A stretch of 64,000 nucleotides of DNA from NCBI GenBank assembly GCA_002070215.1, contig MWCV01000002.1, positions 34,952 to 98,951 on the forward strand, given 5' to 3'. A program made the position numbers and the translations under genes. Each line of letters starts with the position of its first letter. Positions within the stretch are counted from its first letter, which is position 1. Source of the stretch: Chloroflexi bacterium ADurb.Bin180 (lineage in GTDB: Bacteria; Chloroflexota; Anaerolineae; UBA2200). Shown here one piece after another: positions 21,461 through 48,544 of this stretch. The notes beneath the pieces are model-generated. The model had not been told where the DNA came from and did not search any database. It saw nothing but the letters and a program-made list of their open reading frames with translations.

Positions 21461-21602
21461 CTTCAACCTCCTAGCTTGGCCATGAAGTTGGTGCAAGGTA
21501 TGCTGCTCCGCGCAAGCGGAACAATCCATAGCAGATGACGTGACATGATTATACAAGATACGGGCCCCACTGCGTGATGCACTGTCTATGCTGCCGCCAG
21601 GG

Positions 21603-21639
21603 CTCTCCTCCCGCAACGGAGAATGCTGCGGGAGGAGAG
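21603..21639 (-). terminator. GC-rich hairpin 12 nt after the stop of the 4,300-aa gene (13-bp perfect stem, 11-nt loop); terminator or processing/stability element between the two giant genes
   Basis: CTCTCCTCCCGCA-acggagaatgc-TGCGGGAGGAGAG. No U tract. A TATAAT hexamer follows on the minus strand (complement at 21548-21553) and could be the -10 of the downstream giant gene. Confidence 0.35.
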
Positions 21640-30600: not shown

Positions 30601-33600
30601 AGCAGACAGGGTCATTGTAGTGACTGGCCCTGCCGTCACCTCGACACTCGCCACTGCTGTCAGAGTGCCGCCCACCGTGGCACTGACGATGCCTGTCCCA
30701 CTCAGCCCGCCAGAGGTGAACGTGGTGGTAGCCGTCCCCGTGCCGGCGAGGGTGGTGTTTGAACTCGGGAACACGCTGCCAAGCGCATTGCTGGTGAAGG
30801 ACACCACGACACCCGGCACTGGATTGCCGTACGCGTCCTCAACCGTCGCCGTGATCACCGCTCTATCGCGCGGTGTATCACAACTGTTGGGTATGGCCAG
30901 TGGCCAGCTTTCCACCGAGATGCTGGCTGGCGCGCCGGCGGTCAGAGTCACAGTGGTTGTGTACTGCGCTATCCCCGGGTCAGGCACACCGCCGACGATG
31001 GCCACTCCGGCGATCGTACCGGCCCGCAGTGTCGCATAGGCCTTGCCACCGCCAAAGCCGGCGGTCGTCGGGTAGATGACCGTTGCCAGGTCGCTGGTAA
31101 AGGTGATCAACGTTCCATCGAGAATGTTGTAGCCGCCGCCCTGGCCCGTGGCCGTGATCGCCGAGGTGGCCATTCCGTCGGCCGGGATGGTGCTCGGCCC
31201 CGCCTTCAGGCCTACCGTAATGGGCGGCGAAGACCAGACACTCGCAGCGCTACGAACGTCCCTCGGTGTGCTCGGGCCCACAGTCACCGTGTTGTGACCC
31301 CACCAGTTGCCTTCGGCGTGGGTCCGTGTGATGAGCTGGTTGTTCAAGCCGAACAGAGCATTGCTGTAGATGCTATTCCCGTGAATCAGAGGTGCCGTAA
31401 CAACCAGCGTCGAGCTGATGTAGATGCCATGGCCAGCGTTGCTCTCAATCAGGTTGCTCTCCACCGTGATGGGAATCGAGCAGTCGAAAAGGTACACGCC
31501 TGCCGAATTGGTGCGATTGCCTTCGGCGTTGCTGGCGGCAGCGATCCTGTTGAGGCGAACAACACTGTCACTAGTGATGCCAATCAGGGTTAGTCCGCCG
31601 CGGTTGTGGTTTGCGTCGGGCGCAGCGCCATATCCGTCCAGCCACCCCTGGTTCGTGTTCGCTATCGTGTTCGTACCGACGGTGACACTGGCTCCGCCGC
31701 CGCCGTTGACCAGGATGCCATCCCAGAACACGTCGTGAACGTGGTTGCCATAGATGCCATTGTTGAGCGTAGAGCCACTCAGCTCAATGCCCACGTTCTG
31801 CAGGTCATAGATGTGGTTGTTGTCAAACGAGTTCTGGTTGCCCGTGTTCAGGCGGATGCCCACACCCAGGTTGTTGTAGACGGTGTTGTAGCACACCGTG
31901 TTGTAGGACGAGTTCTCCAGGTAGATGCCATTGTTGCCCAGAGTCACATCGTTACTGCAGATGGTACTGGTAAAGACATAGCTGCCGCGGACACCATAGG
32001 TGGTGTTCGACTCGAGCACGTTGTTGGTGATGGTTGCAGCCAGGACGCGCGGCCCGGGGCCAACTCCCGTGCCGCGCAGGTAGATACCTGTCTCAAAGTC
32101 GCGAATCCTGAATCCACTGATCGTGACATAGTCCGCCCGGTCCACATAAAAGCCCCTGCTGCCAGCGGCATCCGTGCCCACCACCAGCACCGAACTGGCG
32201 CCGCTGCCAAGTAGGCTCACCCGCTTGGCTACAGTGACTGACTCGGCATAGGTGCCTGGCAACACGTGTACGGTTCCATTGGCCAGCACACCGTTGACGC
32301 CGCCCTGAATCGTATCATAGGCGGTATAGTTCCAGATATGGCCGTCGTTGCCACAACTGCTGCAGTAGTCATCATCGACCCAGACTTCAAGGGGGCCAGG
32401 GAAGCTGACCGTTGTCTGGCCTGTGGGCCAGCCCGTGGACGTTCCCGACACCTCAGCCTGGATTGCCGTGGCGCGAACGACCGCGACACCATTGCTCGAG
32501 GGCGCCGTCAGAGGGACGCAGACAATGCCGCCGCTGGATACCGTTCCGGAGCGGAACGCATCCAGCCACACTCGACCACTGCCAGCGTGCTGAATCCGAA
32601 TGATGTGGGGCCCCGGCGTCAGTGAGACGCTCAACTGCCGCTCGACCAGCCATTGCAGAGAGCCGCTGGCAAAGTTCAACGTGGTTACATACGAGCCGTC
32701 AATGATCACATCGGCCTGCCCGCCGGTCGTGTTGGTCGGATAGATCAGTGATACCGCTTCACCGCTAAAGCTCCAGGTGACTTCGTCGCCAGGGTTGTCA
32801 GAGTAGATGTACGCCCCATTGCTCGCCGAGCCCGAAAGGGCGGTAGGCCAGGTGCCAAGTTTCGTCACCCCGGCGCTTTCCGCTTCGGTATAGGCATAGT
32901 CCACCGAGCCAAGCGATGTAGTGATACCGATCATTGTGTCATCGACGACCAGATTGCCGTAGATGTCGGTGACGGTGATGCAGATCGAGGCAGTTGAGAC
33001 GCCATCAGATGGCAGCTCTGTCGGATCGGAGGATACGGTGACCGTGTACGGAGGTCCAGAGACAGACGGCGCGGTGCTGCGTATCCAGCGTACCGCATCA
33101 GCACAGGTGTCTCCGGCACTCGACGAATTCAGCTCGACGTACTCTCCGGTTGAGGCACCGGTGCCTGCCTTGAACGGCCACACGCCCAGAGGGTACCACC
33201 CCGACGGATCAAAGTCGGCGACAACGTTGCCATCCGCATCGAGCGACTCGTCCACATACACGGTGGCCGTGCCGCCATTGTAGTGGACCGTATAGGGCAC
33301 GGCCGACGGGCGCGCGCTGTGCACGCTCCAGTGAGCCTGCACTTCATAGTAGCCGTCTTCCGGGATAGGGCTGGTCACGCACGGCGAAAAGACCGCAGTC
33401 TGTGTCAGCCAGCTAGTAGTCTCATACCGATAAGAGCCCGCGTAGCCGCCCGCGGTGCCAGTGTTCCACTGCCCCGGGGGCGCATCGCTGTAGCAGGATG
33501 TCGCTTCATCGACCACCACGGGCGGGAAAACCGGGGTGGCTGTCGGCGTAGGGGTCCTGGTCGCGGTATTGGTAGGCGTAGGTCCAATCGAGGTAGCAGT

Positions 33601-34548
33601 AGGTGTTGGACTGGCGGTTGGCGTAGGGGTCGGGGGCGAGCCACTCCAGTCAACGATCAGCTCTGGCCTCTGGTCTGCCAGTGCCCATTCTGAGCTGCAG
33701 TAGTAGTTGATGCGCTGATTGTCGGACCCGATCAGTACAAAGCCCTTGTTAGCCGAAGGATTCGTCACCCAGTCCTGAACCTGGGCTGTAACGTCCCAGT
33801 AGTGCCACTCACCTTCCGAGTTCACCGTCACGGTCGTAACGGGCGTGAAGGAATAGTCCGTAGCCATGTCCTCGCAGCCCTGCACGCCCCAGAACGTAGA
33901 AGCGGTGGCCTTCTGCCAGGACGCAGCGACCTCGGTCCACGGCCGAACGACCTCATACGCACCGATTCTCAGTGGTCCAACCAGGTTGCGGTCAAAGCAA
34001 TACAACCCCAATCTGGCGCTGAGAACGGTTGCCGAGTTGGGAATGGCGGCTGGAGTGAGGTCAAAGTTCAGCAACGCCTTGTAGGCGCCATCCTGGCCAA
34101 TTGCCAGACGCGGCTCCCCTCCGGGTGCCTTGGTGGGGTTCCACTTGTTCAGGTAGGTATCAACCATCCCCGTATAGGAAGGATTGGGGTAATTGCCATA
34201 CTGGAACACGACGGTGCCGCCCAGGGCAGCCGAACTGGCGTCTCCAGCAGGAAGGACCTGTGCCTCGGGCAGGTCGCCGGCAGCCACAGGGGAGGTCATC
34301 AGGCGCAACACGAGGGCAGGACCGGCGAACAGGAATCCCAGACACAGCACAAACACCAGCAAAGACAGAGCAAGGCCGTGAGAACCGGATTCCTTGCCTC
34401 TCGAGAGGCGCGACCTGGCGCGTGCAGCCGAAGGTCTTGCTCGCACGTCAGCACCCACCGAAGAGCGGAAGGGTACTGGCCGGGTCACAGTGGGACGCAC
34501 GTCTGGTCCCGCATCCGAAGGGGTCAGTCCGAAGGTCGTCTGGTCCAT
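21652..34548 (-). CDS. Giant membrane-anchored surface protein (~4,300 aa): N-terminal cytoplasmic tail plus one TM anchor, DNRLRE/CBM-like beta-sandwich, three tandem super-modules (Big_1 domain, R module, parallel beta-helix, then Big domains), DUF11 repeats, six C-terminal Big_1 domains
   Basis: Continuous 12.9-kb ORF. I chose the ATG at 34546-34548 (MDQTTFGL...) with GGGAGG 9 nt upstream; the ORF-track start at 34623 overlaps the -10 of the upstream promoter. Hydrophobic anchor LALSLLVFVLCLGFLFAGPALVL. Three beta-helices begin VWVDDD..C..CGNDGH.W and end GNWWG(H/R)N. There are many Big_1 segments (DG.STS.ITATV.D..GNPV). DUF11 segment: VGYPEQIPPNELVTFTLYYTNAGATQGTAAVVTDTLP. Confidence 0.85.
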   Translation of the reverse strand: MDQTTFGLTPSDAGPDVRPTVTRPVPFRSSVGADVRARPSAARARSRLSRGKESGSHGLALSLLVFVLCLGFLFAGPALVLRLMTSPVAAGDLPEAQVLPAGDASSAALGGTVVFQYGNYPNPSYTGMVDTYLNKWNPTKAPGGEPRLAIGQDGAYKALLNFDLTPAAIPNSATVLSARLGLYCFDRNLVGPLRIGAYEVVRPWTEVAASWQKATASTFWGVQGCEDMATDYSFTPVTTVTVNSEGEWHYWDVTAQVQDWVTNPSANKGFVLIGSDNQRINYYCSSEWALADQRPELIVDWSGSPPTPTPTASPTPTATSIGPTPTNTATRTPTPTATPVFPPVVVDEATSCYSDAPPGQWNTGTAGGYAGSYRYETTSWLTQTAVFSPCVTSPIPEDGYYEVQAHWSVHSARPSAVPYTVHYNGGTATVYVDESLDADGNVVADFDPSGWYPLGVWPFKAGTGASTGEYVELNSSSAGDTCADAVRWIRSTAPSVSGPPYTVTVSSDPTELPSDGVSTASICITVTDIYGNLVVDDTMIGITTSLGSVDYAYTEAESAGVTKLGTWPTALSGSASNGAYIYSDNPGDEVTWSFSGEAVSLIYPTNTTGGQADVIIDGSYVTTLNFASGSLQWLVERQLSVSLTPGPHIIRIQHAGSGRVWLDAFRSGTVSSGGIVCVPLTAPSSNGVAVVRATAIQAEVSGTSTGWPTGQTTVSFPGPLEVWVDDDYCSSCGNDGHIWNYTAYDTIQGGVNGVLANGTVHVLPGTYAESVTVAKRVSLLGSGASSVLVVGTDAAGSRGFYVDRADYVTISGFRIRDFETGIYLRGTGVGPGPRVLAATITNNVLESNTTYGVRGSYVFTSTICSNDVTLGNNGIYLENSSYNTVCYNTVYNNLGVGIRLNTGNQNSFDNNHIYDLQNVGIELSGSTLNNGIYGNHVHDVFWDGILVNGGGGASVTVGTNTIANTNQGWLDGYGAAPDANHNRGGLTLIGITSDSVVRLNRIAAASNAEGNRTNSAGVYLFDCSIPITVESNLIESNAGHGIYISSTLVVTAPLIHGNSIYSNALFGLNNQLITRTHAEGNWWGHNTVTVGPSTPRDVRSAASVWSSPPITVGLKAGPSTIPADGMATSAITATGQGGGYNILDGTLITFTSDLATVIYPTTAGFGGGKAYATLRAGTIAGVAIVGGVPDPGIAQYTTTVTLTAGAPASISVESWPLAIPNSCDTPRDRAVITATVEDAYGNPVPGVVVSFTSNALGSVFPSSNTTLAGTGTATTTFTSGGLSGTGIVSATVGGTLTAVASVEVTAGPVTTMTLSAAPTTLPANGVALSNLTVTMVDCLGNPIPDGELVGFTTTLGSIVNYAFVEAESSVVMTSTGWSGVNDPTASGGRYLNSTTPGAAASWVFRGEGVALRYRRFGSGGVMRVRIDAGAPIDVDTNGAGAWVERVIATGLSPYVDHVIEVTVQSATIRLDAFRSGPVSSGGQALAQLKAPALAILSPTETHTATVYATERIGHLPLTDLVVTTTVIFGQGDVVWVDDDWVGLPNGTVVTLPGYVGGGSASIGSDAFDTIPGGVQGVKTNGTVRVLAGTYPLPVVVTRTMHLVGDGSSSTFIQGAGSGTGVVVRRPGDGVTIDGFTIRDFGLGVYLDGRTANHIDGFQFVNNALINNATGAITATFVDKGYFADNEIYAGSGYGIDLYNGNTPSFIGNRFHDIGGFGLRTRSTTGALISHNSLQNLGWNGIVAGDSSSNTSVVSNIIDTTNLTLSGLGFNEGGIVLYNTTNSVVEYNKVFGVGTAGGSNDTAGLWIGGSDSGSSASYNQFLNNVNDGVLLWAFNVGAPPVLHCNHIYGNGRFGIRNQVAAPPIVDATGNWWGRNTPTTGTSAPRDIYRPPVNVDYDPRIRVLLAPSAPTVLAGGPSIVITATACGGGCCMLDGMPITLTTSLGQLGAPPGPVAVSALNGGWTIVAFKPGTVAGTAVITGYVANHGVVTTSVQILPLAPATISVTAAPNRIRVGETSVISAEVRDIYANPVSPGTPIYFDTTLGTLVPISSTVFGGGVATTTLHAGIIPGRAIVGAYSGFVADFADVQIIAGSPYTITSLTANPPSLRANGLDTSLITAIVLDQYGNLVPDLTMVGMTTTHGSLYRYVEAEAAEVISSTGWTAFPDGTASGGWYIRTATVAASVYWNFRGEAVSVVYYQDGVGGVMRVRIDGASPVDIDTNAIPGWREQVIAADLDPNVSHQLEIVCQSGVVRLDAFRAGAAVVGGQAKATLTASMLPPVNARIIATGIDIPGVARVVGTFPTRTLIVPFLQPKEVWVNPAYCDICPNDGHQWGYDAFSTIPPAITAVASWGTVHVADGVYSGGITIGKPIYLDGAGSGGTTHLVGSGSGNGILVTASADGSTIEGFAISNFGFGMFLDGRLANPLNGITVTNNVISGCATGAFTATFVNDGVVADNAFRDCAGFGADLNAGNRNRIRNNHIFEVGGFGLRVTGVAGSASDNVVELNRVHGIAFDGIRIGSNTLNTSVLSNTIMSTNRSTGGGFDLGGLALNGTTNVHVEGNVIAYVQNAGGLLPDAAGIGLDGSNVGPVILRNWIRDNVNHGIYLTSLGYTAGAPLQLHGNSIYANGKFGIYSNVTTVAADAEGNWWGHNSPTSSPSASTVPRDVFTGLGANVDYTPPIRLDIARAPTEIPADGVSTSSVTLTMRCATCTPVYDVLDNTVITLTNSLGSFGTPPVQRLTSSGRAYAALQSATVVGRSYITATTPFQSVYTWVDFVAGPAVTITLQANPPQIWPLGLEPPGFTSTATITVTAVDQFNNPCAGHTATFAFSPLGTASMSPLSRVLKPNGTHWTTLKAGTIAGTIWVTATVDGEEGVLGVDVMSGPPSSLVLERSPVAIPADGVSTAILTATVRDANGNLVNTGTMVGFETDLGSMLHDLVEAEGPEVDRSVGDWSPPTFNANASGNNFIYTDNPGAWVSWEFRGSAVSVMYRRGVGGGQARVFVDGDEKALIDLSAGSTMWRRETVVNGLNPSVLHTVRVECVTGRVWLDAIRSGATTVNGVATALLTSAQDCSTATVTATAVESRYEVGIGEVLIRQAEVEFLCTDLMISKVGYPEQIPPNELVTFTLYYTNAGATQGTAAVVTDTLPSLLTYVGSTSRPNVGPPQNPTDNIWVWSLGNLQPGVSGAITVTARHACEPFLGEVSNDAEIKSLTVEDQDGENLASKSVVLTAGPPFTMTITATPANILVDQSSAVRIVVYDACGNPVAGRVVNITTTIGSLNASDVVTNVTRTSDSHGRVNLTFYSQNSVGAARITATTAGVLAETTVWINVGPPAETVLVANPAAIPADGISTSTIVARVLDSGGYPSPDGYFVGFTTSLGSMIYGYAEESALTQQPPSSWTSTADGAASGGAYRMTSLDGASMYWNFHGNGVSIMYIRAPGDGWADVYLDGANLLGDINMGGSVTFRAERVFTWAGDPTEAHVLRITHRPGTGPIRIDAVRSGMTTSGGEAVAVLTAATHVGTAIVAGVTVSDTAGIVPVLIPGYVNVRFGPADLSVTKSIQPASSIEIGQWITFSLDIRNNGPMTATATTLDDLISDSVLSTDWLLDTWFSRAPLVISPGTNFWWSLGNMAPGEQLSIQFGGRINTARYWPAATVITNTATVDSSTADTAGANNVGRANATIVPSEPVTMTLYASPSFVYVGGDTSSLYATLRDVYGNPAPDGTMVTFFASLGGFPGSSVVTIPTSGGTAVATLTSGPSAGLADITASAGALHATTQVLIRPLGAFTMTLMAMPTAIPVGGSTSVIQANVVDMYGNWVEDGTAVSFATNAGFVSPAVDYTVSGGVTTILASGNSAVTATVTASCGAAVRTVNVRFLPGPGLVSIMAHPLVLPVGNSSQITVTARDEFGNPVLDGTVISLTTSLGWFKDSLITRTFTTTVGGRGVVGLYSTVAGRALVQAKVGANSAAVMITFEPGPPHTIRFRSVEPAIIDGCGGTGLATVVVEDRYGNPVKDGTVVVFDVTPQGDVEPIDGGRTLNGVAQAIISSGRVPGPATVWAWPENWRNSVVGTYAITFLVGPPDRIEANAEPPRVPVGGNNAAIRIRVFDCGNYPVTDGTVVTFTLLSGGGSLTPRTTTTANGRAVATLTSPNETGSASVRIEAGARQATVVVEYVPGPVFDILVTANPLSIAANGVTTSTVEAELRDRYGNYVADRTAVVFSTDLGSFPGGGAFTTATIGGRARAILTSSAIPGMARVAATAGGKRGEAFVDFYYQPTPTPTLPPQRIWKTSLPVILKWR

Positions 34549-34621
34549 GGGATGGGCCTCCCTGTTCGTGAATGGTCGCGTCCTTCGATTGCTTGAGGTG
34601 TCGCTGCTTGGGTTAACAGCC

Positions 34622-34651
34622 ATTATAGCACTACCTTGTCCGCTTTGTCAA
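34622..34651 (-). promoter_or_regulatory. Near-consensus sigma70 promoter for the 4,300-aa gene (minus strand: TTGACA-18-TATAAT)
   Basis: The complement of TTGACA is at 34646-34651 and of TATAAT at 34622-34627. The predicted TSS is ~34615, giving a ~65-nt leader to the ATG at 34548. Confidence 0.5.
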
Positions 34652-34820: not shown

Positions 34821-34850
34821 TTGCCGTCCAGACGGCAAGCCCGGTATAAT
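34821..34850 (+). promoter_or_regulatory. Promoter for the FemAB-family gene (TTGCCG-18-TATAAT), divergent from the giant-gene promoter; the mRNA would be leaderless or nearly so
   Basis: TATAAT at 34845-34850 ends 9 nt before the ATG at 34860. There is no SD between them. Confidence 0.35.
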
Positions 34851-34859
34851 GGCTGAACC

Positions 34860-35945
34860 ATGGAGATCCGATCCTCGCTGGTCAGTGCATTCGATCCCGT
34901 ACAGTGGGACGCTTTTTCAAAGGAAGCAGAAACCGGCCACCTGCTTCAGTCGTGGGGCTGGGGAGAACTGAAGGCGCCCTTTGGCTGGCTGCCCATTCGT
35001 GTAGCCGTTCTGGAGCACGGGCACATCGTTGCCGCCGCCCAGGTCCTTTGCCGCCACCTTCCGCTGGACTTGGTCACACTAGCCTATATGCCACGCGGGC
35101 CAATGTTGAGCCAGCCGCTCTCGCTTCGTTCGCCTGATTCCGAGCTAATCGAGGCCGTTCTGGCGACCTGCCGGCGCCGGCGCGCAGTGATGCTCAAGCT
35201 AGAGCCAGAATGGCGAGACACAGAAGTGGCCCGTCAATGGATGTCTGCCTGGCGGCTCTCGGCGAGCAGTTGGTCAGTGCAGCCCAGGCGAACCGTACTG
35301 GTCGACCTCCGCCTGGACGAAGATGATATTCTGGCTCAGATGAAGCCCAAGACCCGCTACAACATCCGCCTTGCCGAGCGCAAGGGCATCGTCGTTGCGC
35401 AGGGGACCGCCGACGACTTGTCTGACTTTTATCGGTTGCTGCGCGTGACCGGCGAGAGGGCCAGTTTCGGGGTCCACACCCTCGATTACTATCGTCGCGC
35501 CTGGAGCCTTTTCCGCGAGCGCGACAGCGTGGCTTTGTTCCTGGCCAGGTACTCCGGGCGCACGCTGGCGGCAATTCTGGTCATCGCCTGGGGCAAGACG
35601 GCCTACTATATGTATGGCGGCTCCTCGGACGAAGAGCGGCAGCGCATGCCCACTTATCTCTTGCAGTGGGAGGCGATGCGCTGGGCCAAAGCAAGGGGCT
35701 GTCAGCTCTATGATCTGTGGGGCATTCCCGATGTCGACGAGAGCAAAGTCGGTGAGGATATTCAGGCCGCGGAGGCCAGCGGCGTCCTCAGTCACGGAAT
35801 GGGTGGGCTCTACCGCTTCAAGCGCGGCTTTGGTGGCCAGGAGACCCGCTACATCGGCGCCTGTGACGCGGTGCTCAATCCCGTTCTGTACCCCCTGATG
35901 ATGGCGCTGCGGACGCACCGCAACCAGGCACAGCAGGCACAATGA
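34860..35945 (+). CDS. FemAB-family peptidoglycan interpeptide-bridge transferase (aminoacyl-tRNA-dependent, FemX/FmhB-like)
   Basis: FemAB signature N-terminus FLQSWGWGELK, with two GNAT-like halves, at ~360 aa. Confidence 0.75.
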   Translation: MEIRSSLVSAFDPVQWDAFSKEAETGHLLQSWGWGELKAPFGWLPIRVAVLEHGHIVAAAQVLCRHLPLDLVTLAYMPRGPMLSQPLSLRSPDSELIEAVLATCRRRRAVMLKLEPEWRDTEVARQWMSAWRLSASSWSVQPRRTVLVDLRLDEDDILAQMKPKTRYNIRLAERKGIVVAQGTADDLSDFYRLLRVTGERASFGVHTLDYYRRAWSLFRERDSVALFLARYSGRTLAAILVIAWGKTAYYMYGGSSDEERQRMPTYLLQWEAMRWAKARGCQLYDLWGIPDVDESKVGEDIQAAEASGVLSHGMGGLYRFKRGFGGQETRYIGACDAVLNPVLYPLMMALRTHRNQAQQAQ

Positions 35946-39250: not shown

Positions 39251-39688
39251 ATGAAGGCAGTGGTGCAGCGGGTGACGTTGGGACGAGTGGTGGTGGACGG
39301 AGTGACTCTGGGCGAGATCGGCCACGGGCTGGTCGTGCTGCTGGGCATCGGCCAGGGAGACGGCGAAGAGCAGGTGCAATGGATGGCCCACAAGCTGGCC
39401 AACCTGCGGGTCTTTTCTGACGATCAGGGGAAGATGAACCGCTCTGTGCTCCACGTTGGCGGCCAGGTTCTGCTCATCTCTCAATTCACTCTCTATGGTG
39501 ACGCTCACAAGGGCCACCGCCCCGGGTTCTCAGACGCCGCGGCCCCCGAAGCAGCCGCGCCGCTGGTGGAGAGCGTTGCATCGCACCTGAGGCTGGAAGG
39601 TGTGCCCGTCGCCACTGGCCGCTTCCAGGCCCACATGCTGGTCGAGATACACAATGATGGCCCGGTGACGATCCTGCTTGACAAATAG
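39251..39688 (+). CDS. dtd: D-aminoacyl-tRNA deacylase
   Basis: MKAVVQRV...GLVVLLGIGQGD...ISQFTLYGD (SQFTL motif). 145 aa. Confidence 0.92.
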   Translation: MKAVVQRVTLGRVVVDGVTLGEIGHGLVVLLGIGQGDGEEQVQWMAHKLANLRVFSDDQGKMNRSVLHVGGQVLLISQFTLYGDAHKGHRPGFSDAAAPEAAAPLVESVASHLRLEGVPVATGRFQAHMLVEIHNDGPVTILLDK

Positions 39689-39725
39689 CGATGGAACTTC
39701 AAGTCTACTCCATCGTCCTACTTTT
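39689..39725 (+). terminator. Weak hairpin plus TTTT after dtd
   Basis: CGATGGA-(13-nt loop)-TCCATCG followed by TCCTACTTTTGG. Confidence 0.25.
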
Positions 39726-39730
39726 GGAGC

Positions 39731-41446
39731 ATGCTGGTGACGAGTCATAATCGCCTGCTTATCGTGTGTGCCCTGATGGCGCTGCTGTTCCTGCCTGCCT
39801 GCAAGCTGCGCTCTTCGGGCCAGCCCGCTGTTGCTGCCGCGCCGTTGAATACGCAATCGGGCTGGGCCATTCGCGTCACCGGCAGTGGCTGGAAGGCTGG
39901 CTCCAAGATCACTGTGCTCATCGCCGCAAAGGGGGCCTCGCCCAGCCAGGGCACGCCGGTTAGCAGCGCGCTCACGGATGCTTCCGGCGCTTTCACCACC
40001 ATCTTCCTCTTGCCCACTGACCCGCACTGGAAGGCGCTGCCGGAGCTTGCCGTCATTGCCTCCGCCAATGACCAGTCCAGCACGGCCACAAGCACATTCG
40101 CCAACCCGGCTGCTGCTACCCCGACCGCCACAGCCGAGCTGACGCCCGCACCAACTCGCACCCCGGCAGCCTCACAGTACGTGGTGGGCTATGTCGTCAG
40201 CATCGCCCTCGAGTCGCGCACTCTGGCGGTCAGGCCAGTGGAGGGCCAGGCATCGACCATCGCACTGACTCCTGCGGCAACCGTCTCTTACCAGGGCAAG
40301 GAGCTGCCCCTGGCTCAGCTACGCCAGGGAGACCTCATTGAGGCCGCCGGAGCTGTCTCTTCAGATGGGCAGCTCGCGGCCCAGACGCTGCGCGTACTGG
40401 CCAGAGGAACCATCGAGCCTACTCCAACACCCACTCCAGTGCTGCTCACATGGAAGGGAGAGTACTTTCCCAATCTGACCCTGAGCGGCGCTCCCGCACT
40501 GGTGCGAAACGACCCGGTGATTGACTTTGAGTGGCGAGGGTCTGGTCCCGCTGCCAACATTCCAGACGACGCTTTCTCCGTTCGCTGGACCGGCAACTGG
40601 CTCTTCGAAGAGGGCAACTACCGGTTCTACGCACAGGTAGATGACGGGGTGCGTCTGGCCCTCGATGACCACTGGGTTATTGACCGATGGCATGAAAGTG
40701 GTGGTGCACTCTACACCGCCGACGCCTATCTCAGCCGGAACACCCACCTGGTCAAGGTAGAATACTTTGAAGCCCGCGACCTGGCCCAGGCCAAAGTGTG
40801 GTGGGAGTACCGCGGACCCGGAGCAAAGCAGAACTATCCAGACTGGCAGGCAGAATACTATCCCAATACCTCCCTGAGCGGGCTGCCGTATATCATGCTG
40901 AATGACCGCACCATTTCCTTTGACTGGAAGTCCGGCCCTCCCGTCGCAGGCATGCAGAGCGACGGTTTCTCGGCCAGGTGGACACGCACCGTCAATCTCG
41001 ATGCTGGTGTCTACCTGTTTGAGGTTGTGGCCGACGATGGCGTGCGGCTGTGGGTCGACGAAGGACTGTTGATCGACGAGTGGAAAGAAACCGCGGCGCA
41101 GAGCTACTCTGCCGAGCGCTTTCTATCCGGGGGCAGTCACCGCCTCCGCGTAGAGTACTATGAAAGCACCGGAGAGGCCGTGATTCGTGTTGCCTGGAGA
41201 CAGCTTCCGGCCACCCCGACACCCACTGCCACGCTGCCCCTGCCGACGCCAACGAGCACTCCCACGGCCACTCGCACCCCCGAGCCAGCCTCGACCTATC
41301 AGCCAGCGGTGACCCCTGAGCGACCGTCAGGCAGTGTTGCGTCCCGGTTCACCGCCTTCTTGCCCCTGGCCGGGCAACCTCCAGCCGGACTGCCCCTCTT
41401 GCCTGCACCTTTTCGCCTGTTCGAGCGCGACCTCAAGCGCTTCTAG
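39731..41446 (+). CDS. Lipoprotein with two tandem PA14 domains and Pro/Thr-rich linkers
   Basis: Lipobox LLFLPAC. Two PA14-like repeats: [52 protein letters not shown] and [50 protein letters not shown]. Confidence 0.8.
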
Positions 41447-41482
41447 CGTCCTTTCGACCGACGCTCGGTCCACCAGTTTCAC

Positions 41483-41511
41483 TTGACTGCACTCCCTCGC
41501 GCCGCTATACT
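41483..41511 (+). promoter_or_regulatory. Near-consensus sigma70 promoter (TTGACT-17-TATACT) ending 9 nt before the ChlI-like ATG, implying a leaderless mRNA
   Basis: TTGACT at 41483-41488 and TATACT at 41506-41511. The ATG is at 41521 with no SD. Confidence 0.45.
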
Positions 41512-41520
41512 GGTTACGCT

Positions 41521-42612
41521 ATGGTGACCTTCCCCTTTACGGCCATCGTCGGCCAGGACAAGATGAAGCGCGCTCTCATTCTCAACGCCATCAGCCCTCA
41601 GATCGGTGGCGTCCTCATTCGTGGCGAGCGCGGCACGGCCAAGTCCACTGCCGCGCGAGCCCTGGCCGCGTTGCTTCCTGACATCGAGGTCGTGCAGGAT
41701 TGCCCGTTCCACTGCGACCCCGCTGCCCCGCTGACCCTGTGCGACGATTGCCGCGCCAGATCACTGCGGCAGCCCGAACTACCACGTGTCAGATGCCGCA
41801 CGCAGTTCGTCGACCTTCCAGTCAGCGCCACAGAGGACAGGGTCGTAGGTACCCTGGACATTGAAAAGGCCATCAAGAAGGGCGAGAGGCACTTTGAGCC
41901 AGGCGTGCTGGCAGCCGCCAATCGCGGGCTGCTCTACGTGGACGAAGTGAACCTGCTCGACGACCATGTGGTGGATCTGCTGCTGGACTCGGCCGCCATG
42001 GGCGTCAATGTCGTGGAACGCGAGGGCATCTCCTTTACCCACCCGGCGCGGTTTATCCTCGTGGGAACGATGAACCCCGAAGAGGGAGAACTCAGACCGC
42101 AGTTGCTGGACCGCTTTGCTCTCTGCGTCGAGATCAAGACCATTTCCGATCCGCAGCAGCGAGTGGAGATCGTACGTCGACGCGTTCTCTACGAAGCGGA
42201 CCCGGAGGTCTTTGCCAGAACCTGGCATCCCCAAGAACAGGCCCTCTCTGAGACCATCCGGCAGGCTCAGTTGTTGCTGCCCCAGGTGACCTACCGTGAT
42301 GAGGATCTGTTCACGGTGGCCGAACTAACCGCCGAGTTCGAAGTGGATGGCCATCGCGCGGACATCGTCATCCTCAAGACGGCCCTGGCCCACGCCGCTT
42401 TTGAGGGCCGCACAGCCATCGCTGATGCGGACATCCTCCTTGCCGCTGAGCTGGCCCTTCCGCACCGACTGCACAAAAAACCTCTCCAGGGAAGCGACCT
42501 GCGACTCGACAAGCTCGAGCAGAGGCTGGAGGCGTCCCAGAGCAGGGCTGCCAACGGCACGCAGGCCAGCACAGACACTGAGATAGTAAAAAAAAAACGC
42601 AGCCAGTGCTGA
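41521..42612 (+). CDS. ChlI/BchI-type AAA+ ATPase (magnesium-chelatase subunit I family)
   Basis: [43 protein letters not shown] (Walker A) ...[10 protein letters not shown] (Walker B) ...[24 protein letters not shown] (sensor/arginine fingers). It ends in a low-complexity tail with an A10 tract. Confidence 0.88.
42588..42597 (+). other. A10 homopolymer 13 nt before the ChlI-like stop codon; the +1 frame opens at 42590 and runs into the downstream vWA ORF
   Basis: GTAAAAAAAAAACGC. A frame-2 stop (TAA at 42587-42589) lies immediately before the run, and no stop follows in frame 2 until the vWA ORF. Confidence 0.9.
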
Positions 42613-42649
42613 ACTAACCCAATCCGCGGCGCCTCCAGTAGCAACACCC

Positions 42650-43582
42650 TTGAAAGGCCACCAGGCCGACGCCATGCCCCTCTCTTACATCCGGGAGCCA
42701 GGCGTTACCATGGCCATCGGCCCTACCTTTCAACCCCGGCGCCTGCAGACGCCCCTCGATCGTATGGTGCGCGATGGCCCGGGCAAGCGCAGCTTTACCC
42801 GCACCAGCCGCAAACGCGGCCGCTACGTAAGCAGTTGCGATGCCCGTGGCGACACGAGTGACATCGCTTTCGATGCGACGTTTCGTCAGGCCGCCCCTGA
42901 CCAGATCCACCGCAACCACGAGACCGCCGCACTGGCCCTCAAGAAACAGGACCTGCGCCGGAAGGTCAGGGTACGCCGCGCGGCGAACCTGATTCTCTTT
43001 GTCGTCGACGCCAGTTGGTCTATGGCCGCGGCAGAGCGAATGAAGGCTACCAAGGGGGCCATCCTCTCCCTGTTGATGGACGCCTATCAGAAACGCGACG
43101 AGGTTGGACTGATCACTTTCCAGAGAGAGAGCGCCAGCCTCCTTCTTCAGCCGACCTCGTCAGTCGAGGCGGCCAGGGAGATCCTCCAGGACATACCTGT
43201 GGGCGGCAAGACACCCCTCGCTGCTGGCCTGATGCTGGCCTATGAAGTGCTGTCGCGTGAACGGCGCAAGGACCCAGAGGTCATGCCTATGCTCATCCTG
43301 CTCACCGATGGGGCAGGCAACGTCTCGATGACCGGCTTGCCCCCTCAAGAGGAAGCACTCAACCTCGCGCACCAGATCAGACAGAGCGGAATCCGTGCCG
43401 TGGTTATCAACACAGAGCACCAGTCACTGGATCGCGGCCTGGCCCAACAACTGGCCGATCGTATGGGCGCCCCCTGCTACACCCTGACCGAGCTGGGTGC
43501 TCAGGAGCTCTATACCACCGTGCGCGATGAACTACAATGTCAGATGCCAGCCGCGCTGGCCTCCGCGGGGCGCCATGGTTGA
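42650..43582 (+). CDS. vWA-domain protein resembling the C-terminal half of Mg-chelatase subunit D (ChlD/BchD); possibly the downstream half of a frameshifted fusion with the preceding gene
   Basis: RGRYVSS...DIAFDATFRQAAP...ANLILFVVDASWSMAAAERM (MIDAS DxSxS) ...LLTDGAGN. It has only a TTG start and no SD, and the frame is continuous with the A10 tract upstream. Confidence 0.75.
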   Translation: MKGHQADAMPLSYIREPGVTMAIGPTFQPRRLQTPLDRMVRDGPGKRSFTRTSRKRGRYVSSCDARGDTSDIAFDATFRQAAPDQIHRNHETAALALKKQDLRRKVRVRRAANLILFVVDASWSMAAAERMKATKGAILSLLMDAYQKRDEVGLITFQRESASLLLQPTSSVEAAREILQDIPVGGKTPLAAGLMLAYEVLSRERRKDPEVMPMLILLTDGAGNVSMTGLPPQEEALNLAHQIRQSGIRAVVINTEHQSLDRGLAQQLADRMGAPCYTLTELGAQELYTTVRDELQCQMPAALASAGRHG

Positions 43583-44474
43583 CCGTTCGTCTCGCACCGC
43601 CCGGGCTGATGGCTTGCTGGTCCTGATTACTCTGATCTGGGGCAGTACGTTCCTTCTCGTTCAGCGTACTGTGCAGTCATACCCGGTCTTTAGTTTTCTT
43701 TGTCTGCGCTTTGTGCTGGCCAGCGGGGTCCTGCTGATGCTCTTGGGAAAAAGACTGCGGTTTCTCTCGCCGCGCATGTGGGCTGCCGGCGTGGCCATTG
43801 GCTTCTTTCTCTTTGGTGGCTATGCGCTACAGACGCTGGGGTTGCTGTACACCACGTCATCCAAGGCCGGATTCATCACCGGCCTCTCGGTAGTCATCGT
43901 GCCGGGGCTCTCGGCCACCCTGCTGAGGCGCATACCGGAGAGAGCGGCGCTCCTTGGCGTTCTCCTCTCGACAGTTGGGCTGGCTCTGCTGACTCTGGGC
44001 CGCGACCTGAGGCCCACTCTCGGGGACGTTCTGGTGCTGGGTTGTGCGTTCTGCTTTGCGCTGCACATCGTGGCCGTGAGCCATTTTGCTCCCCAAACGG
44101 ACGCCCTGGCGCTCACGGTGGTCCAGGTTGCCGCTGTAGCTGTCTTCAGTGGTCTGGCCGCTACGCTGCTCGGCGAGTGGCAGCTACCACAGCCGTCTGT
44201 TCTGGGCGCTGCTGCATTCACCGGGGTACTGGCCACGGCACTCGCCTTTGCCGTGCAGAACAGCGTACAATCCTGGACCACAGCCACGCACACGGCGTTG
44301 ATCTTTGCCACCGAGCCGGTCTTTGCCGGCATCTTTGGTTACTGGTTGGCCGACGAACGGTTTTCTGGCAAGGCCGTGATCGGCTGCATACTCATCCTGC
44401 TTGGCATGCTGGTCGCGGAGCTCAGGGCGCCCGCTCCTCAGGGCTCGACTACTCGCGGAGGTGAGCTAGTATGA
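43575..44474 (+). CDS. EamA/DMT-family transporter (10 TM, duplicated EamA domain)
   Basis: Start at the ATG at 43575 overlapping the vWA stop. Hydrophobic repeats (LLVLITLIWGSTF...). ~300 aa. Confidence 0.8.
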   Translation: MVDRSSRTARADGLLVLITLIWGSTFLLVQRTVQSYPVFSFLCLRFVLASGVLLMLLGKRLRFLSPRMWAAGVAIGFFLFGGYALQTLGLLYTTSSKAGFITGLSVVIVPGLSATLLRRIPERAALLGVLLSTVGLALLTLGRDLRPTLGDVLVLGCAFCFALHIVAVSHFAPQTDALALTVVQVAAVAVFSGLAATLLGEWQLPQPSVLGAAAFTGVLATALAFAVQNSVQSWTTATHTALIFATEPVFAGIFGYWLADERFSGKAVIGCILILLGMLVAELRAPAPQGSTTRGGELV

Positions 44475-44932
44475 AACTGATCGATGGCGTGAAGGTCCGC
44501 AAGCTGCGCCTGATTCCCGACGAGCGTGGCTTCTTGATGGAAATGATGCGCACCGACTGGGACGAGTTCGAAAAGTTCGGCCAGACCTACATCACTGCCG
44601 TCTACCCCGGAGTGGTCAAGGGCTGGCACTATCACCAGAAACAGACGGACCACTTCATCTGCGTCCATGGCATGGCCAAAGTTGTTCTCTACGACGGCCG
44701 CGAGGGCTCACCCACCCAAGGTGAGATCAACGAGTTCTTCATGGGTACCCTGAACCCGATTATGCTCAAGATTCCCAGGGGTGTTATGCACGGTTTCAAG
44801 GGCATCAGCGAAGAGATGACCCTCATCGTCAATGTTCCCACAGAGCTCTATGACTACCAAGAGCCGGACGAGTATCGCCTGCCAGCCCACACGGACCAGA
44901 TTCCTTACGACTGGTCACGCCACGACGGCTAG
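44471..44932 (+). CDS. Cupin-fold sugar-nucleotide epimerase/isomerase (RmlC/FdtA/WxcM-like)
   Basis: The ATGA overlaps the EamA stop. PDERGFLMEMMRTDWDEF...VKGWHYHQKQTDHFICVHGMAKVVLYD. Confidence 0.7.
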   Translation: MKLIDGVKVRKLRLIPDERGFLMEMMRTDWDEFEKFGQTYITAVYPGVVKGWHYHQKQTDHFICVHGMAKVVLYDGREGSPTQGEINEFFMGTLNPIMLKIPRGVMHGFKGISEEMTLIVNVPTELYDYQEPDEYRLPAHTDQIPYDWSRHDG

Positions 44933-45240: not shown

Positions 45241-47019
45241 ATGGCAGAACCAATCATCAAGGTCTCCGGTCTGACCTACTACTACCAGAACGAAGCAGCA
45301 CCGGCCCTCCGCGACGTCAACCTGGAGGTATATCCAGGCGAGTTCTTGCTCCTCATTGGCCCCAGCGGCTGCGGCAAGACCACTCTGGCCCTGGCGATGA
45401 ACGGCATCATCCCCCTGGTGATGGGCGGGCGCATCAAGGGCAGGGTATTCGTTGACGGCGTAGATACGCGCAGTAGTTCTGTCTACGAGCTGGGCACCAA
45501 GGTCGGCATCGTGTTCCAGGACCCCGACTCTCAATTGTGCAACCTGTATGTACAGGAAGAGGTCGGTTTCGGGCCAGCCAATCTCAAGATGCCGCGCGAT
45601 GAAATCCTGCGCCGCGTTGACGAGGCTCTGGCCCAGGTTGGCGAAAGCGCGATCAAGCACAAGCTCATCTATGAGATCTCCGGCGGCGAGAAGCACCGCG
45701 TCGCCATCGCTTCAATCCTGGCCATGAATCCCAGGATCATCATACTCGACGAACCAACTGCCAACCTGGACCCGCTCGGCGCCGTGGAAGTCTTTGGCCT
45801 GATGAAGCGGCTCAACCGGGAGTTGGGCGTCACCATCGTCGTCATCGAACACAATGTAGACCCGGTGATGTGTCATGCTGACCGAGTCGTTCTGATGGAG
45901 AATGGGACCGTAGTCTACGCCGGAGAGCCCCGCCAGGTTATCCAGGAGCGCGGACGATTCGTGATGGACACCATGGGCCTGCGCATTCCGCAGGTGTGCC
46001 AGCTTGCCCTGGCCCTGGCCGACAAGGGCGTCGACCTGGAGCCCTTCCCCTTGACCGTTGCTGAAGCAGCTCAGGCCCTCACCTCTCTGACACCCTGCCT
46101 CGAGTTCCATCCTGCGCCAGCACTGCCAGACAAACCAGCCGGCGAGGCAGTGATCATGACAGAGGGATTGAGCTTTGCTTATCCCAATGGCACGCAGGCC
46201 GTGAAGGACGTCTCGCTCGAGATCCATCGCGGCGACATTGTGAGTTTCATCGGCCAAAATGGTTCTGGCAAGACAACTCTGGCCTCACTCCTGGTCGGGC
46301 TGAACAAGCCTGCTACTGGCTCGGGCACGGTCTGCGGGCTGAGCCTTAGCGCAGCCAGCATCCGCGAGCTGACCAGCCACATCGGGTACGTATTTCAGTA
46401 CCCGGAGTATCAGTTCGTCGAGGACACGGTCTACAAAGAAGTGGCCTTTGGCTTGCAAGCTCAGCGGGTCCCGCCGGCTGAAATCGCCGCGCGAGTGACC
46501 AAGACCCTCAACCTGCTCGGGGTGGAAACGATGAAAGACAAACACCCCCTGCGACTCAGCATGGGCCAGAAGCGGCGGCTCAGTGTGGCCACCATGCTCA
46601 TCCTGGACACAGAGATCCTCATTCTGGACGAGCCAACCACGGGCCAGGATCGCAGGAACATTGACAACATCATGGAGATCATGTGTGCAGCCAACCGCAA
46701 GGGCACGACGATCATCCTCATCACCCACGATATGAACCTGGCCGTCCGGTACTCCACGAGATTCCTCGTGATGGACCAGGGAGAGCTCGTGTTTCAGGGC
46801 TCACGCAGCGAGTTCTTTCGCCAGTTTCGTCAGATTCGCTCCAGTGTTCTGGTGCTGCCAGAGGTCTACGAGCTCGCTGACAAACTACGCGAAAACGGGC
46901 TGACTCTGGTTCCCCAAGCCTACACCGTGCGTGACTTTGTTGACGCAGTGACGCTCTGCCAGCCGGAGAGACCCTCCACTGGGGCAGCGGCAACGGGTAC
47001 TGGCGGGGAGGCGGCATAG
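45241..47019 (+). CDS. ECF (energy-coupling factor) transporter ATPase, fused tandem ABC domains (EcfA1-EcfA2 / CbiO-type)
   Basis: Two Walker A boxes (GPSGCGKTT and GQNGSGKTT), two LSGG-type signatures (ISGGEKHR and LSMGQKRR) and two Walker B boxes (IIILDEPT and ILILDEPT). Confidence 0.9.
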   Translation: MAEPIIKVSGLTYYYQNEAAPALRDVNLEVYPGEFLLLIGPSGCGKTTLALAMNGIIPLVMGGRIKGRVFVDGVDTRSSSVYELGTKVGIVFQDPDSQLCNLYVQEEVGFGPANLKMPRDEILRRVDEALAQVGESAIKHKLIYEISGGEKHRVAIASILAMNPRIIILDEPTANLDPLGAVEVFGLMKRLNRELGVTIVVIEHNVDPVMCHADRVVLMENGTVVYAGEPRQVIQERGRFVMDTMGLRIPQVCQLALALADKGVDLEPFPLTVAEAAQALTSLTPCLEFHPAPALPDKPAGEAVIMTEGLSFAYPNGTQAVKDVSLEIHRGDIVSFIGQNGSGKTTLASLLVGLNKPATGSGTVCGLSLSAASIRELTSHIGYVFQYPEYQFVEDTVYKEVAFGLQAQRVPPAEIAARVTKTLNLLGVETMKDKHPLRLSMGQKRRLSVATMLILDTEILILDEPTTGQDRRNIDNIMEIMCAANRKGTTIILITHDMNLAVRYSTRFLVMDQGELVFQGSRSEFFRQFRQIRSSVLVLPEVYELADKLRENGLTLVPQAYTVRDFVDAVTLCQPERPSTGAAATGTGGEAA

Positions 47020-47820
47020 ATGACGCGCTTCACCTACCTCAAAGGCGACTCGTTCTTTCACCGTATGGATCCGGTCATGAAGATGATCTGGAACGTGGCC
47101 GTGCTTCTGGCAGCAGTATTCAACTTTGACCCGCGCTATTCCGCGGTGTGGTTCGTCTACTTGCTGGCGACGGCCATGTTCCTGGCCAACATCCCCTTCC
47201 GACAATTCGTCAAGAGCCTGTCGGCTTTCCTGGTGTTTGCCTTCTTTATCGCCTTCTGGAAGACGGTGTATTATGTGGGTGAAGCCCACGAGCTGCTGGT
47301 GTGGGGCCCATTCCGCATCACTCGCGAAGGGATGTTAGAAGGGGTCTCTGTGTTCTTTCGCGTGCTGGTTATCTGCAGCCTGTCGATCGTCTTTACCCTT
47401 ACCACGGATCCGAAGCGTATGGTCGACAGCCTGATTCAACTGGCCCACATCCCCTACCGCATCGGCTATGTCGCCTATGCAATGCTTCGCTTCATTCCAC
47501 TCTACGAGAACGAGGCGCAGGTCATTACCAACGCCCATATGATCCGCGGCGTCGGCGAAACAGGCCAAAGCCTCAAGTCGCAGTTCAAACTCTACAGCAC
47601 GCTGCTTGTCCCTCTGCTGGTGAGCGGCATCAGACGGGCTCAGGCAGCAGCCATTGCTATGGATAGCCGTGCCTTCGGTGCTTACGACACACGTACCAGC
47701 ATCGAGGAGGTCAGGGTTACCAGGGCCGACGTCGCGTTTGTGGCTGTTCATGTCCTGGTCTGCATTGCGGCCTTCTGGTATTTTGTCTGGCTCGGCCACG
47801 GAATCCGATACTACGGCTGA
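47020..47820 (+). CDS. ecfT: ECF transporter transmembrane T component (CbiQ/EcfT family)
   Basis: The ATG immediately follows the ATPase TAG. Multi-TM protein with the conserved EcfT-family Arg motifs (RFIP, GIRRA). Confidence 0.8.
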   Translation: MTRFTYLKGDSFFHRMDPVMKMIWNVAVLLAAVFNFDPRYSAVWFVYLLATAMFLANIPFRQFVKSLSAFLVFAFFIAFWKTVYYVGEAHELLVWGPFRITREGMLEGVSVFFRVLVICSLSIVFTLTTDPKRMVDSLIQLAHIPYRIGYVAYAMLRFIPLYENEAQVITNAHMIRGVGETGQSLKSQFKLYSTLLVPLLVSGIRRAQAAAIAMDSRAFGAYDTRTSIEEVRVTRADVAFVAVHVLVCIAAFWYFVWLGHGIRYYG

Positions 47821-47953
47821 GGCTGGACCAACGCAAAGAGAACGGAGGTTGCAGCAGCGAGACAGTTCTTGTCATTTCGCGTAGGATGCTTGGTAAGGCG
47901 GCTCGGGGCACGAACCGTTATTTAGCCCCGTTGTGATGAAAGGAGCAAGAGGC

Positions 47954-48544
47954 ATGTCCGAACAAGCTGGCAAGAAGAGATGGCTCTCCACAATGGACTT
48001 GTTGGTTATGGCAGCAGTTGGGGTTGTCGGCGCGGTCTTTAGCTCTCGCGTTTGGCCTCTGGCGATGAACTTTGCCAGGCCGTTGTTTGTTTTCCTTGGA
48101 ACACTGGGCTGGATCGGTGCCTCTGGCATCTATCTTATATGGCACGTCATCGTGGGCTGCCTGGTGGCCAAGGCGGGTACCGTCACCATCTACGGCGTCA
48201 TTCAGGGTTTCGTAGAAATGCTCTTTGGCAACCCGCTCGGAGTCACAGCCGTTGTCTCCAGTAGCCTCGAAGGGCTGGGCGTCGACCTCGGCATGGGCCT
48301 TTCCCGCTGGAAGCCAGCACTGCCAACGGTGATGCTCGGTGCGGGACTCGGCAATCTCTTTGTTGGTGAGATGTACATTTTCCTCTACCACATGAACACG
48401 ACGCGCTTTGTTGTCCAGGGCGGCATCACCGCCTTCATCAGCGGGGCAGTTCTGGGTGGTCTGGTCGGCTGGCTCATTGCCCAGGCACTCTACAAGACCG
48501 GCGTGGTGTCCAGGTTCGGTCTTACGGGCTACGAGGAGCTCTAG
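47954..48544 (+). CDS. ECF transporter substrate-specific S component (substrate unknown)
   Basis: ~197-aa six-TM protein directly downstream of ecfAT. Start at the ATG at 47954, 9 nt after an AAAGGAG SD. Confidence 0.65.
   Translation: MSEQAGKKRWLSTMDLLVMAAVGVVGAVFSSRVWPLAMNFARPLFVFLGTLGWIGASGIYLIWHVIVGCLVAKAGTVTIYGVIQGFVEMLFGNPLGVTAVVSSSLEGLGVDLGMGLSRWKPALPTVMLGAGLGNLFVGEMYIFLYHMNTTRFVVQGGITAFISGAVLGGLVGWLIAQALYKTGVVSRFGLTGYEEL

Follow-up and report, generated by a model that had tools for sequence, protein, structure and literature searches.

A chlD-type gene divided by a poly-A tract in Chloroflexi bacterium ADurb.Bin180 probably supplies short and long chelatase subunits through slippage

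Twenty-three Mg-chelatase genes annotated as adjacent pairs are joined by −1 frameshifting at a poly-A tract (Antonov et al. 2013, PMC3711429). The hosts in that cluster are Pseudomonas, Burkholderia, Delftia, Herpetosiphon and two methanogen genera, fused homologues were noted in Chloroflexus, and frameshifting in E. coli reporters reached 63% on A11, 40% on A9 and 10% on A7 (PMC3711429). A later review gives the site as A_AAA_AAR and describes strong purifying selection on it (Atkins et al. 2016, PMC5009743 section 18). Passages of Kuznetsov et al. 2022 (PMC9227772) that draw on Antonov 2020 state that the frameshifted gene, fs-chlD, supplies the small chelatase subunit as well as the medium one, and that its −1 type is commoner than its +1 type; passages of the same paper place fs-chlD in Anaerolineae that have neither cobN nor the B12 pathway, and call the function of the I/D pair in them unknown. 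In these three sources (PMC3711429, PMC5009743, PMC9227772), recoding is described for out-of-frame genes only. Here we describe a locus in a window of 64,000 nucleotides (nt) from Chloroflexi bacterium ADurb.Bin180, a member of the Anaerolineae (contig MWCV01000002.1, positions 34,952 to 98,951), in which a ChlI-like AAA+ open reading frame (ORF1) and a von Willebrand factor A (vWA) open reading frame (ORF2) meet at a run of ten adenines, and we conclude that this locus is a further member of the known fs-chlD recoding family.

The locus shares with fs-chlD a ChlI-like AAA+ frame and a vWA frame that differ in phase and are joined at a poly-A tract, fused homologues, purifying selection on the tract, and hosts among the Chloroflexi and Anaerolineae that include genomes without cobN; in both cases one gene is proposed to serve for the small and medium subunits. 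All features lie on the forward strand, in window coordinates, unless marked otherwise. Re-reading of the window bore out ORF1 as a zero-frame ChlI-like AAA+ protein of 363 amino acids (aa) at 41521-42612. The A10 run occupies 42588-42597, within the ORF1 codons GTA AAA AAA AAA and in the context GT-A10-C, and the short product ends at a TGA (42610-42612) four codons past the run, with the tail KKKRSQC*. Frame translations place the vWA ORF in the +1 frame relative to ORF1. A TAA at 42587-42589 closes this frame just ahead of the run; from 42590 no stop follows until 43582, so that any frame change must occur inside the run. A preliminary description of the window had already reported the run between the two ORFs, the closed and reopened +1 frame, and a fusion of about 690 residues on loss of one A; each of these was confirmed, and the fusion computes to 686 aa. 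The gap that it gave as 38 nt, from the TGA of ORF1 to the TTG at 42650, measures 37 nt. The A10 run is the sole homopolymer of at least 8 bases in the window (61% G+C), and dinucleotide-preserving shuffles give 0.01 expected A9 matches per window, indicating that the run is far beyond chance.

ORF1 and the vWA ORF are one ChlD-type gene. The Pfam domains Mg_chelatase and AAA_lid_2 are found in ORF1 and VWA and VWA_2 in ORF2, and the pair together carries Walker A, Walker B and metal ion-dependent adhesion site (MIDAS) motifs. Walker A (GERGTAKS, residues 35-42, 41623-41646) aligns to GDRGTGKS of ChlI and is kept in every homologue inspected, Walker B (LLYVDE, residues 137-142, 41929-41946) is identical to that of ChlI 6L8D, and the DxSxS MIDAS motif of the vWA domain reads DASWS at 43007-43021 and is invariant in the homologues compared. 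Residues 2-327 of ORF1 align without gaps to cyanobacterial ChlI (6L8D), and the C-terminal part matches the BchD integrin I domain (2X31_A). When the two parts are joined, the virtual fusion matches the NCBIfam family TIGR02442 over positions 1-640 of 641 with 791.8 bits, above the cut-off of 779.45; neither half passes alone (ORF1 507.8 bits, ORF2 277.6 bits). Positions 384-640 of this match fall to the +1-frame coding region (42590-43582), which comprises the linker, an AAPxQ motif and the vWA domain. The preliminary description had asked whether orthologs are fused, and the best 120 homologues of the fusion are, in 120 of 120 cases, single fused proteins of 624-703 aa from Anaerolineae, Chloroflexota and Caldilineae assemblies. 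It had also called the architecture that of a textbook Mg-chelatase subunit D. The ChlD-type order of AAA+ and vWA modules holds. The fusion scores 448 bits against TIGR02031 (BchD-ChlD; cut-off 499.55), ORF1 falls just below the cut-off of TIGR02030 (BchI-ChlI; 449.3 against 466.95 bits), and on these profile scores the best fit is 'putative cobaltochelatase' (TIGR02442) rather than true Mg-chelatase D.

The same evidence bears on whether the locus holds two ordinary genes, a ChlI-like ATPase and a vWA protein started at the TTG (42650) or at an ATG (42674 or 42710), which would act together in the manner of BchI with BchD or MoxR with a vWA partner. Gene callers do annotate two genes on contigs with A10, and some downstream initiation was seen in the reporter constructs of Antonov 2013 (PMC3711429). 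The vWA frame had been thought to offer only the TTG, but both ATG codons are in frame, and the gene callers of other contigs pick the equivalent of 42674. The reported lack of a Shine-Dalgarno sequence, by contrast, extends to all three candidates, against a clear one in 6 of 10 neighbouring genes; this argument is of moderate weight only, because the ATG of ORF1 likewise has none. The conserved peptide PLKGHQADAMPLSYIRE (42647-42697) begins before the TTG and spans the first ATG, and independent initiation would therefore truncate it. The conserved PLKGHQADAMPLSYIR peptide starts before all candidates, and the PLKGH...SYIR peptide is kept in fused orthologues and, in split ones, lies in the downstream frame upstream of any usable start. 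The vWA part alone reaches no family cut-off, which only the fusion does, the homologues are fused, and a sequence scan found neither promoter nor terminator between ORF1 and the vWA ORF. We consider two independent genes quite improbable.

Comparison with relatives indicates that, although the rest of the linker varies, the nucleotides of the tract are conserved, and more strongly than codon usage would predict. In three sister species (L172, L173/174 and L175; 87-90% aa identity) the gene is in frame with GT-A9-C (VKKN), and the TGA of the window recurs in their −1 frame four codons past the run, giving KKKRNRG*, KKKRSHG* and KKKRSPC* beside the KKKRSQC* of the window. GT-A9, or a run of A8-A10, occupies the corresponding point of the linker in 26 loci whose G+C content is at least 53%, and more distant relatives (54-66% G+C), including Chloroflexus and Chloroflexaceae, keep A8-A10 within a linker that is otherwise unalignable. 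From codon use in the same genes, the probability of GTA AAA AAA given Val-Lys-Lys is 0.017. Among in-frame loci with GT-A9 phasing, the frame reached by one added A stops 1-5 codons past the run in 10 of 10, against a background probability of 0.18 that a stop falls within 6 codons. The genome and metagenome scans comprised the best 80 tblastn matches, which favours in-frame genes and biases the frequencies of split and fused forms.

Split relatives point to the same position. A search with the ORF1 protein listed 120 short proteins (119 of them under 400 aa) at 69-82% identity; the list omits ORF1's own cluster and P0001-P0004 and was not compared quantitatively with that of the fusion search. 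A lysine run lies no more than 30 aa from the C-terminus in 115 of the 119 short homologues, typically as VKKK followed by a few residues. In all seven split relatives for which DNA was available (L127, L152, L169, L170, L171, L176 and L177) the frame shifts at an A9 run, always by the −1 type. Split orthologous genes with ribosome binding sites of their own and no homopolymer, which the preliminary description had named as evidence against a fusion, did not appear: every split orthologue examined has a homopolymer at the junction, and none has a separate start that would include PLKGH...SYIR(Q). One split protein, P0171, is indexed in 45 blocks, of which the 24 read gave 24 contigs, so that the split state is reproducible.

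Two of the relatives show further irregularities around the run. In Chloroflexaceae bacterium SM1_1_0 (L028, 1700-2960) the A9 run is followed by a zero-frame stop (EKKII*), and tblastn puts the vWA part back in frame 0; this pattern could reflect a pair of shifts that compensate each other, another recoding event or a fault of the assembly. In L177 (2574-2660; clusters P0126 and P0129) the zero frame continues for 17 codons past A9, ending in VKKNEPGVSPPPPTHHPG*, with the vWA part in the −1 frame, and the G5 run found 7 nt past the A run might be another place prone to indels.

Not all fused homologues carry the tract. KK[K/N/T] is present in the linker of 79 of 120 (66%), and the 41 without it form a subclade. 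Members of this tract-less subclade (P0031-P0053 and others; L011, L092; about 69% identity) have neither a lysine run nor an A run in the linker, and no adjacent separate chlI was seen in the flanks examined. Among the loci compared, an adjacent second ChlI-like gene occurs at 0 of 26 tract-bearing loci versus 23 of 100 tract-less ones (Fisher p = 0.004, from flanks only and ignoring phylogeny), and the 64-kb window contains no separate chlI.

Within the species of the window, the run exists at two lengths. On two ENA contigs, L001 and L002, gene callers predict exactly the 686-aa fusion as one protein (P0001); both contigs read GT-A9-C and are 99.2% identical to the window. The exact 363-aa ORF1 is indexed on seven contigs, six of which were returned; five of these (L003-L007) read A10 across the run, and the sixth (L008) encodes the identical short protein and ends before the run could be scored. 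Homopolymers are error-prone, and with two same-species contigs reading A9 the true sequence might be A9 and the A10 of the window a sequencing or assembly error, as the preliminary description had allowed. However, the five further A10 contigs differ in sample, source (ENA, JGI) and assembler (SPAdes-style NODE names and MEGAHIT-style k127 and k141 names), and their haplotypes are 99.0-99.98% identical to the window. With A10 on five independent contigs in addition to the window, the sequencing-error explanation is largely refuted, and we give it hardly any weight.

By single-nucleotide polymorphism patterns, A10 occurs on at least three haplotypes, and A9 on two haplotypes from two contigs. 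We propose that A10 is a derived allele of an in-frame GT-A9-C gene. Contig L005 (A10) is close to L001 (A9), most of the polymorphism pattern being common to both, which indicates that the run length changed recently or repeatedly. Among A10 haplotypes only, the polymorphic codons of the downstream frame are 19 synonymous to 4 non-synonymous, against 2:21 when the same region is read in the wrong frames; the corresponding count for ORF1 is 12:0. The downstream frame is thus still maintained as coding, making simple pseudogenisation, another alternative of the preliminary description, unlikely.

Another alternative is that A10 is a non-adaptive, recent loss-of-function or hypomorphic allele that arose at a mutational hot spot and segregates with the vWA half effectively unexpressed; the outcome may amount to phase variation at the DNA level rather than programmed recoding. 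The sister species, which are all in-frame A9, the A9 allele in the same species, and the common polymorphism pattern of L005 and L001 are compatible with such a history, and the +1 arrangement was seen in none of the 7 other split relatives. However, A10 is the commoner form (the window and five contigs versus two A9 contigs) and is spread over several haplotypes, the reading frame after it is intact with its synonymous excess, and the tract is conserved across the clade. A run of 10 A residues is, moreover, expected to slip in any bacterium tested (PMC5009743, PMC3711429), so that some long product would be made regardless. We judge an A10 allele of this kind unlikely, though a less remote alternative than two separate genes.

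We think it likely that the locus is regulated by slippage and gives short and long chelatase subunits from one gene. This was among the possibilities raised in the preliminary description, and it is favoured by the fit of the fusion to TIGR02442, the fused state of the best homologues and the tract at split junctions. In the mechanism that we propose, the chlD-type gene would be transcribed as a single unit, probably without a leader, and standard decoding of the A10 allele would yield the 363-aa ChlI-like AAA+ ATPase as the 'small subunit'. In a fraction of events the register would change on A10, either because RNA polymerase slips and produces an mRNA with 9 or 12 A residues or because ribosomes carrying tRNA-Lys slip by +1 or −2. 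The resulting product of 686 aa, or 687 aa from the A12 mRNA, which encodes one extra Lys, would contain the same AAA+ module followed by the linker and the vWA/MIDAS domain, and would serve as the 'medium' ChlD-like subunit. Short and long products presumably co-assemble into a ChlI/ChlD-type motor. From the A9 allele the long protein would be the default product and slippage would give the short one, with the inverse holding for the A10 allele, so that both alleles would give both products in inverted ratios.

Runs of 9 A or T are efficient slippage sites for bacterial RNA polymerase, which tends to insert additional residues there; Thermus dnaX is an example (PMC5009743). The 93 nt downstream of the run fold worse than shuffled sequences (z = +1.28), and the equivalent 93 nt in 11 orthologues give z values from −1.97 to +0.93, with no significant or shared fold. 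A downstream RNA stimulator was rejected on these grounds, and no covariance model was built. An Rfam scan of 42300-42900 returned only a chance-level match to isrK (E = 0.6). With no stimulatory structure, Rfam match, promoter or terminator found, polymerase slippage is favoured by analogy with such systems, and slippage of tRNA-Lys is a possible contributor.

The locus departs from described fs-chlD genes in three respects. It would need a +1 shift from A10, a −2 shift, or else an mRNA that has lost one A or gained two; it has no detectable downstream stem-loop; and its A10 allele coexists in nature with an in-frame A9 allele. Several points weigh against a slippage-regulated locus. That slippage occurs in this organism, how efficient it is, whether the polymerase or the ribosome is responsible, and what the substrate may be are all inferred, slippage itself from other systems. 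The +1 type is in the minority, since 7 of 7 other split relatives and the published reporter tests are of the −1 type, and no stimulatory structure follows the run. The gene is in frame in the three sister species and in one allele of this species; A10 could therefore have arisen recently as a mildly deleterious insertion and not be a state that selection maintains. If A9 and A10 often change into each other, part of the synonymous excess downstream could also be older than the insertion. Finally, neither CobN nor ChlH is encoded in the window, and a chelatase role is a prediction from sequence.

The expression signals of the gene are consistent with a short or absent leader. A promoter-like TTGACT-17 nt-TATACT at 41483-41511 has 10 of 12 consensus matches and is the sole such site in 41300-43800. 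Its −10 box ends 9 nt before the ORF1 ATG, and the mRNA is therefore probably leaderless or nearly so, if the consensus match does mark the promoter. Elsewhere in the window, a FemAB-like gene at 34860 has a −10-like TATAAT box about 9 nt before its ATG and no Shine-Dalgarno sequence (34840-34862). Together, the two genes suggest leaderless mRNAs here, whereas most neighbours have strong GGAGG-type sites.

Beyond fs-chlD, the closest parallel is dnaX, in which the tau and gamma subunits arise by −1 frameshifting at A_AAA_AAG in E. coli and by transcriptional slippage on a 9-residue run in Thermus thermophilus (PMC5009743). In dnaX, as proposed here, a poly-A tract lets a single gene encode an AAA+ protein in a long form and in one truncated at its C-terminus, and the two forms become part of the same complex. 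In-frame A9 alleles and orthologues match this layout exactly, with the alternative-frame stop 1-5 codons away. The protein family differs, and the logic of the A10 allele is inverted, the short form being the default. A broader view is that the poly-A tract is a two-way, dnaX-like slippage site conserved whatever the coding configuration, a view that we advance tentatively and that may well prove too general. In-frame chlD-like genes would use the tract to make a ChlI-like short subunit and out-of-frame genes to make the long one, and lineages could move freely between in-frame, −1 and +1 states.

Homopolymer contingency loci offer another comparison, as there too a length polymorphism within a species, here A9/A10, alters the reading frame. 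Since the tract would also slip during expression, a change in length is expected to shift the ratio of products and not to switch the gene on or off, and no link to surface antigens or restriction is apparent. With the Mg-chelatase motor ChlI/BchI plus ChlD/BchD (6L8D, 8OSF, 1G8P, 2X31) the locus has in common the ChlI-aligned N-terminus, the BchD-like C-terminus and the MIDAS. Unlike that motor, its products score below the BchI-ChlI and BchD-ChlD equivalog cut-offs, and no ChlH or chlorophyll gene lies nearby. The AAA+ module of the long form would also be the same intact ATPase as that of the short form, because both are read from the same DNA. The CobN-CobS-CobT system is approached through TIGR02442, which the fused product passes end to end; TIGR02442 is a hypothetical equivalog only, and there is no cobN or other cobalamin gene in the 64-kb window.

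The preliminary description had reported no ChlH or CobN partner nearby, and no CobN, ChlH or BchH was found among the window ORFs of at least 1000 aa or in the flanks of close relatives. The ORFs of this size are two giant surface proteins, RpoC, an M6 peptidase and a penicillin-binding protein. The two giant ORFs are adjacent on the reverse strand (21652-34623, 4323 aa; 16463-21616, 1717 aa) and carry Invasin_D3, Big_1, beta-helix/NosD, DUF11, Golvesin_C and CBM96 domains, from which they are probably huge cell-surface or adhesin proteins.

At 39251-44932 the gene order is D-Tyr-tRNA deacylase, a PA14-domain gene, the chlD-like gene, an EamA transporter and a cupin (dTDP-sugar-isomerase-like). 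This order is kept whole or in part down to about 76% identity (L001, L170, L172-L175, L177), with no obvious functional link. The 3' end of the vWA frame (43527-43582) overlaps the start of the EamA ORF by about 56 nt, and the same EamA start is called on the A9 contig L001. An energy-coupling factor (ECF) transporter at 45241-48544, 1.7 kb downstream, comprises a fused EcfA1-EcfA2 ATPase (592 aa), an EcfT/CbiQ-like protein and a PF09819 'ABC_cobalt' membrane protein. As a link to cobalt it was rejected, being specific to this species and missing at that position in relatives. A role in a defence system was likewise rejected, since PADLOC gave only a weak generic AAA match.

For annotation, these results mean that the two ORFs should be entered as a single recoded gene instead of as 'ChlI' with a 'vWA protein' or as a pseudogene. 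At least 115 homologous clusters from Chloroflexota metagenomes, likewise split by gene callers, need the same correction. The +1 detail, the natural A9/A10 pair and the tract in in-frame orthologues seem to be absent from PMC3711429, PMC5009743 and PMC9227772; Antonov 2020 may treat the in-frame case. The locus does not overturn current understanding. It adds a natural pair of alleles of one recoding site, A9 in frame and A10 at +1, and shows that the slippery tract is kept in in-frame orthologues too, with alternative-frame stops nearby. It also adds a further predicted ChlI/ChlD-type motor for which no large subunit is in view and whose substrate PMC9227772 acknowledges to be an open question. 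If the tract does work as a slippage site in both directions, the A9/A10 polymorphism of this species would act as an inherited switch between two inverse proportions of small and medium subunits.

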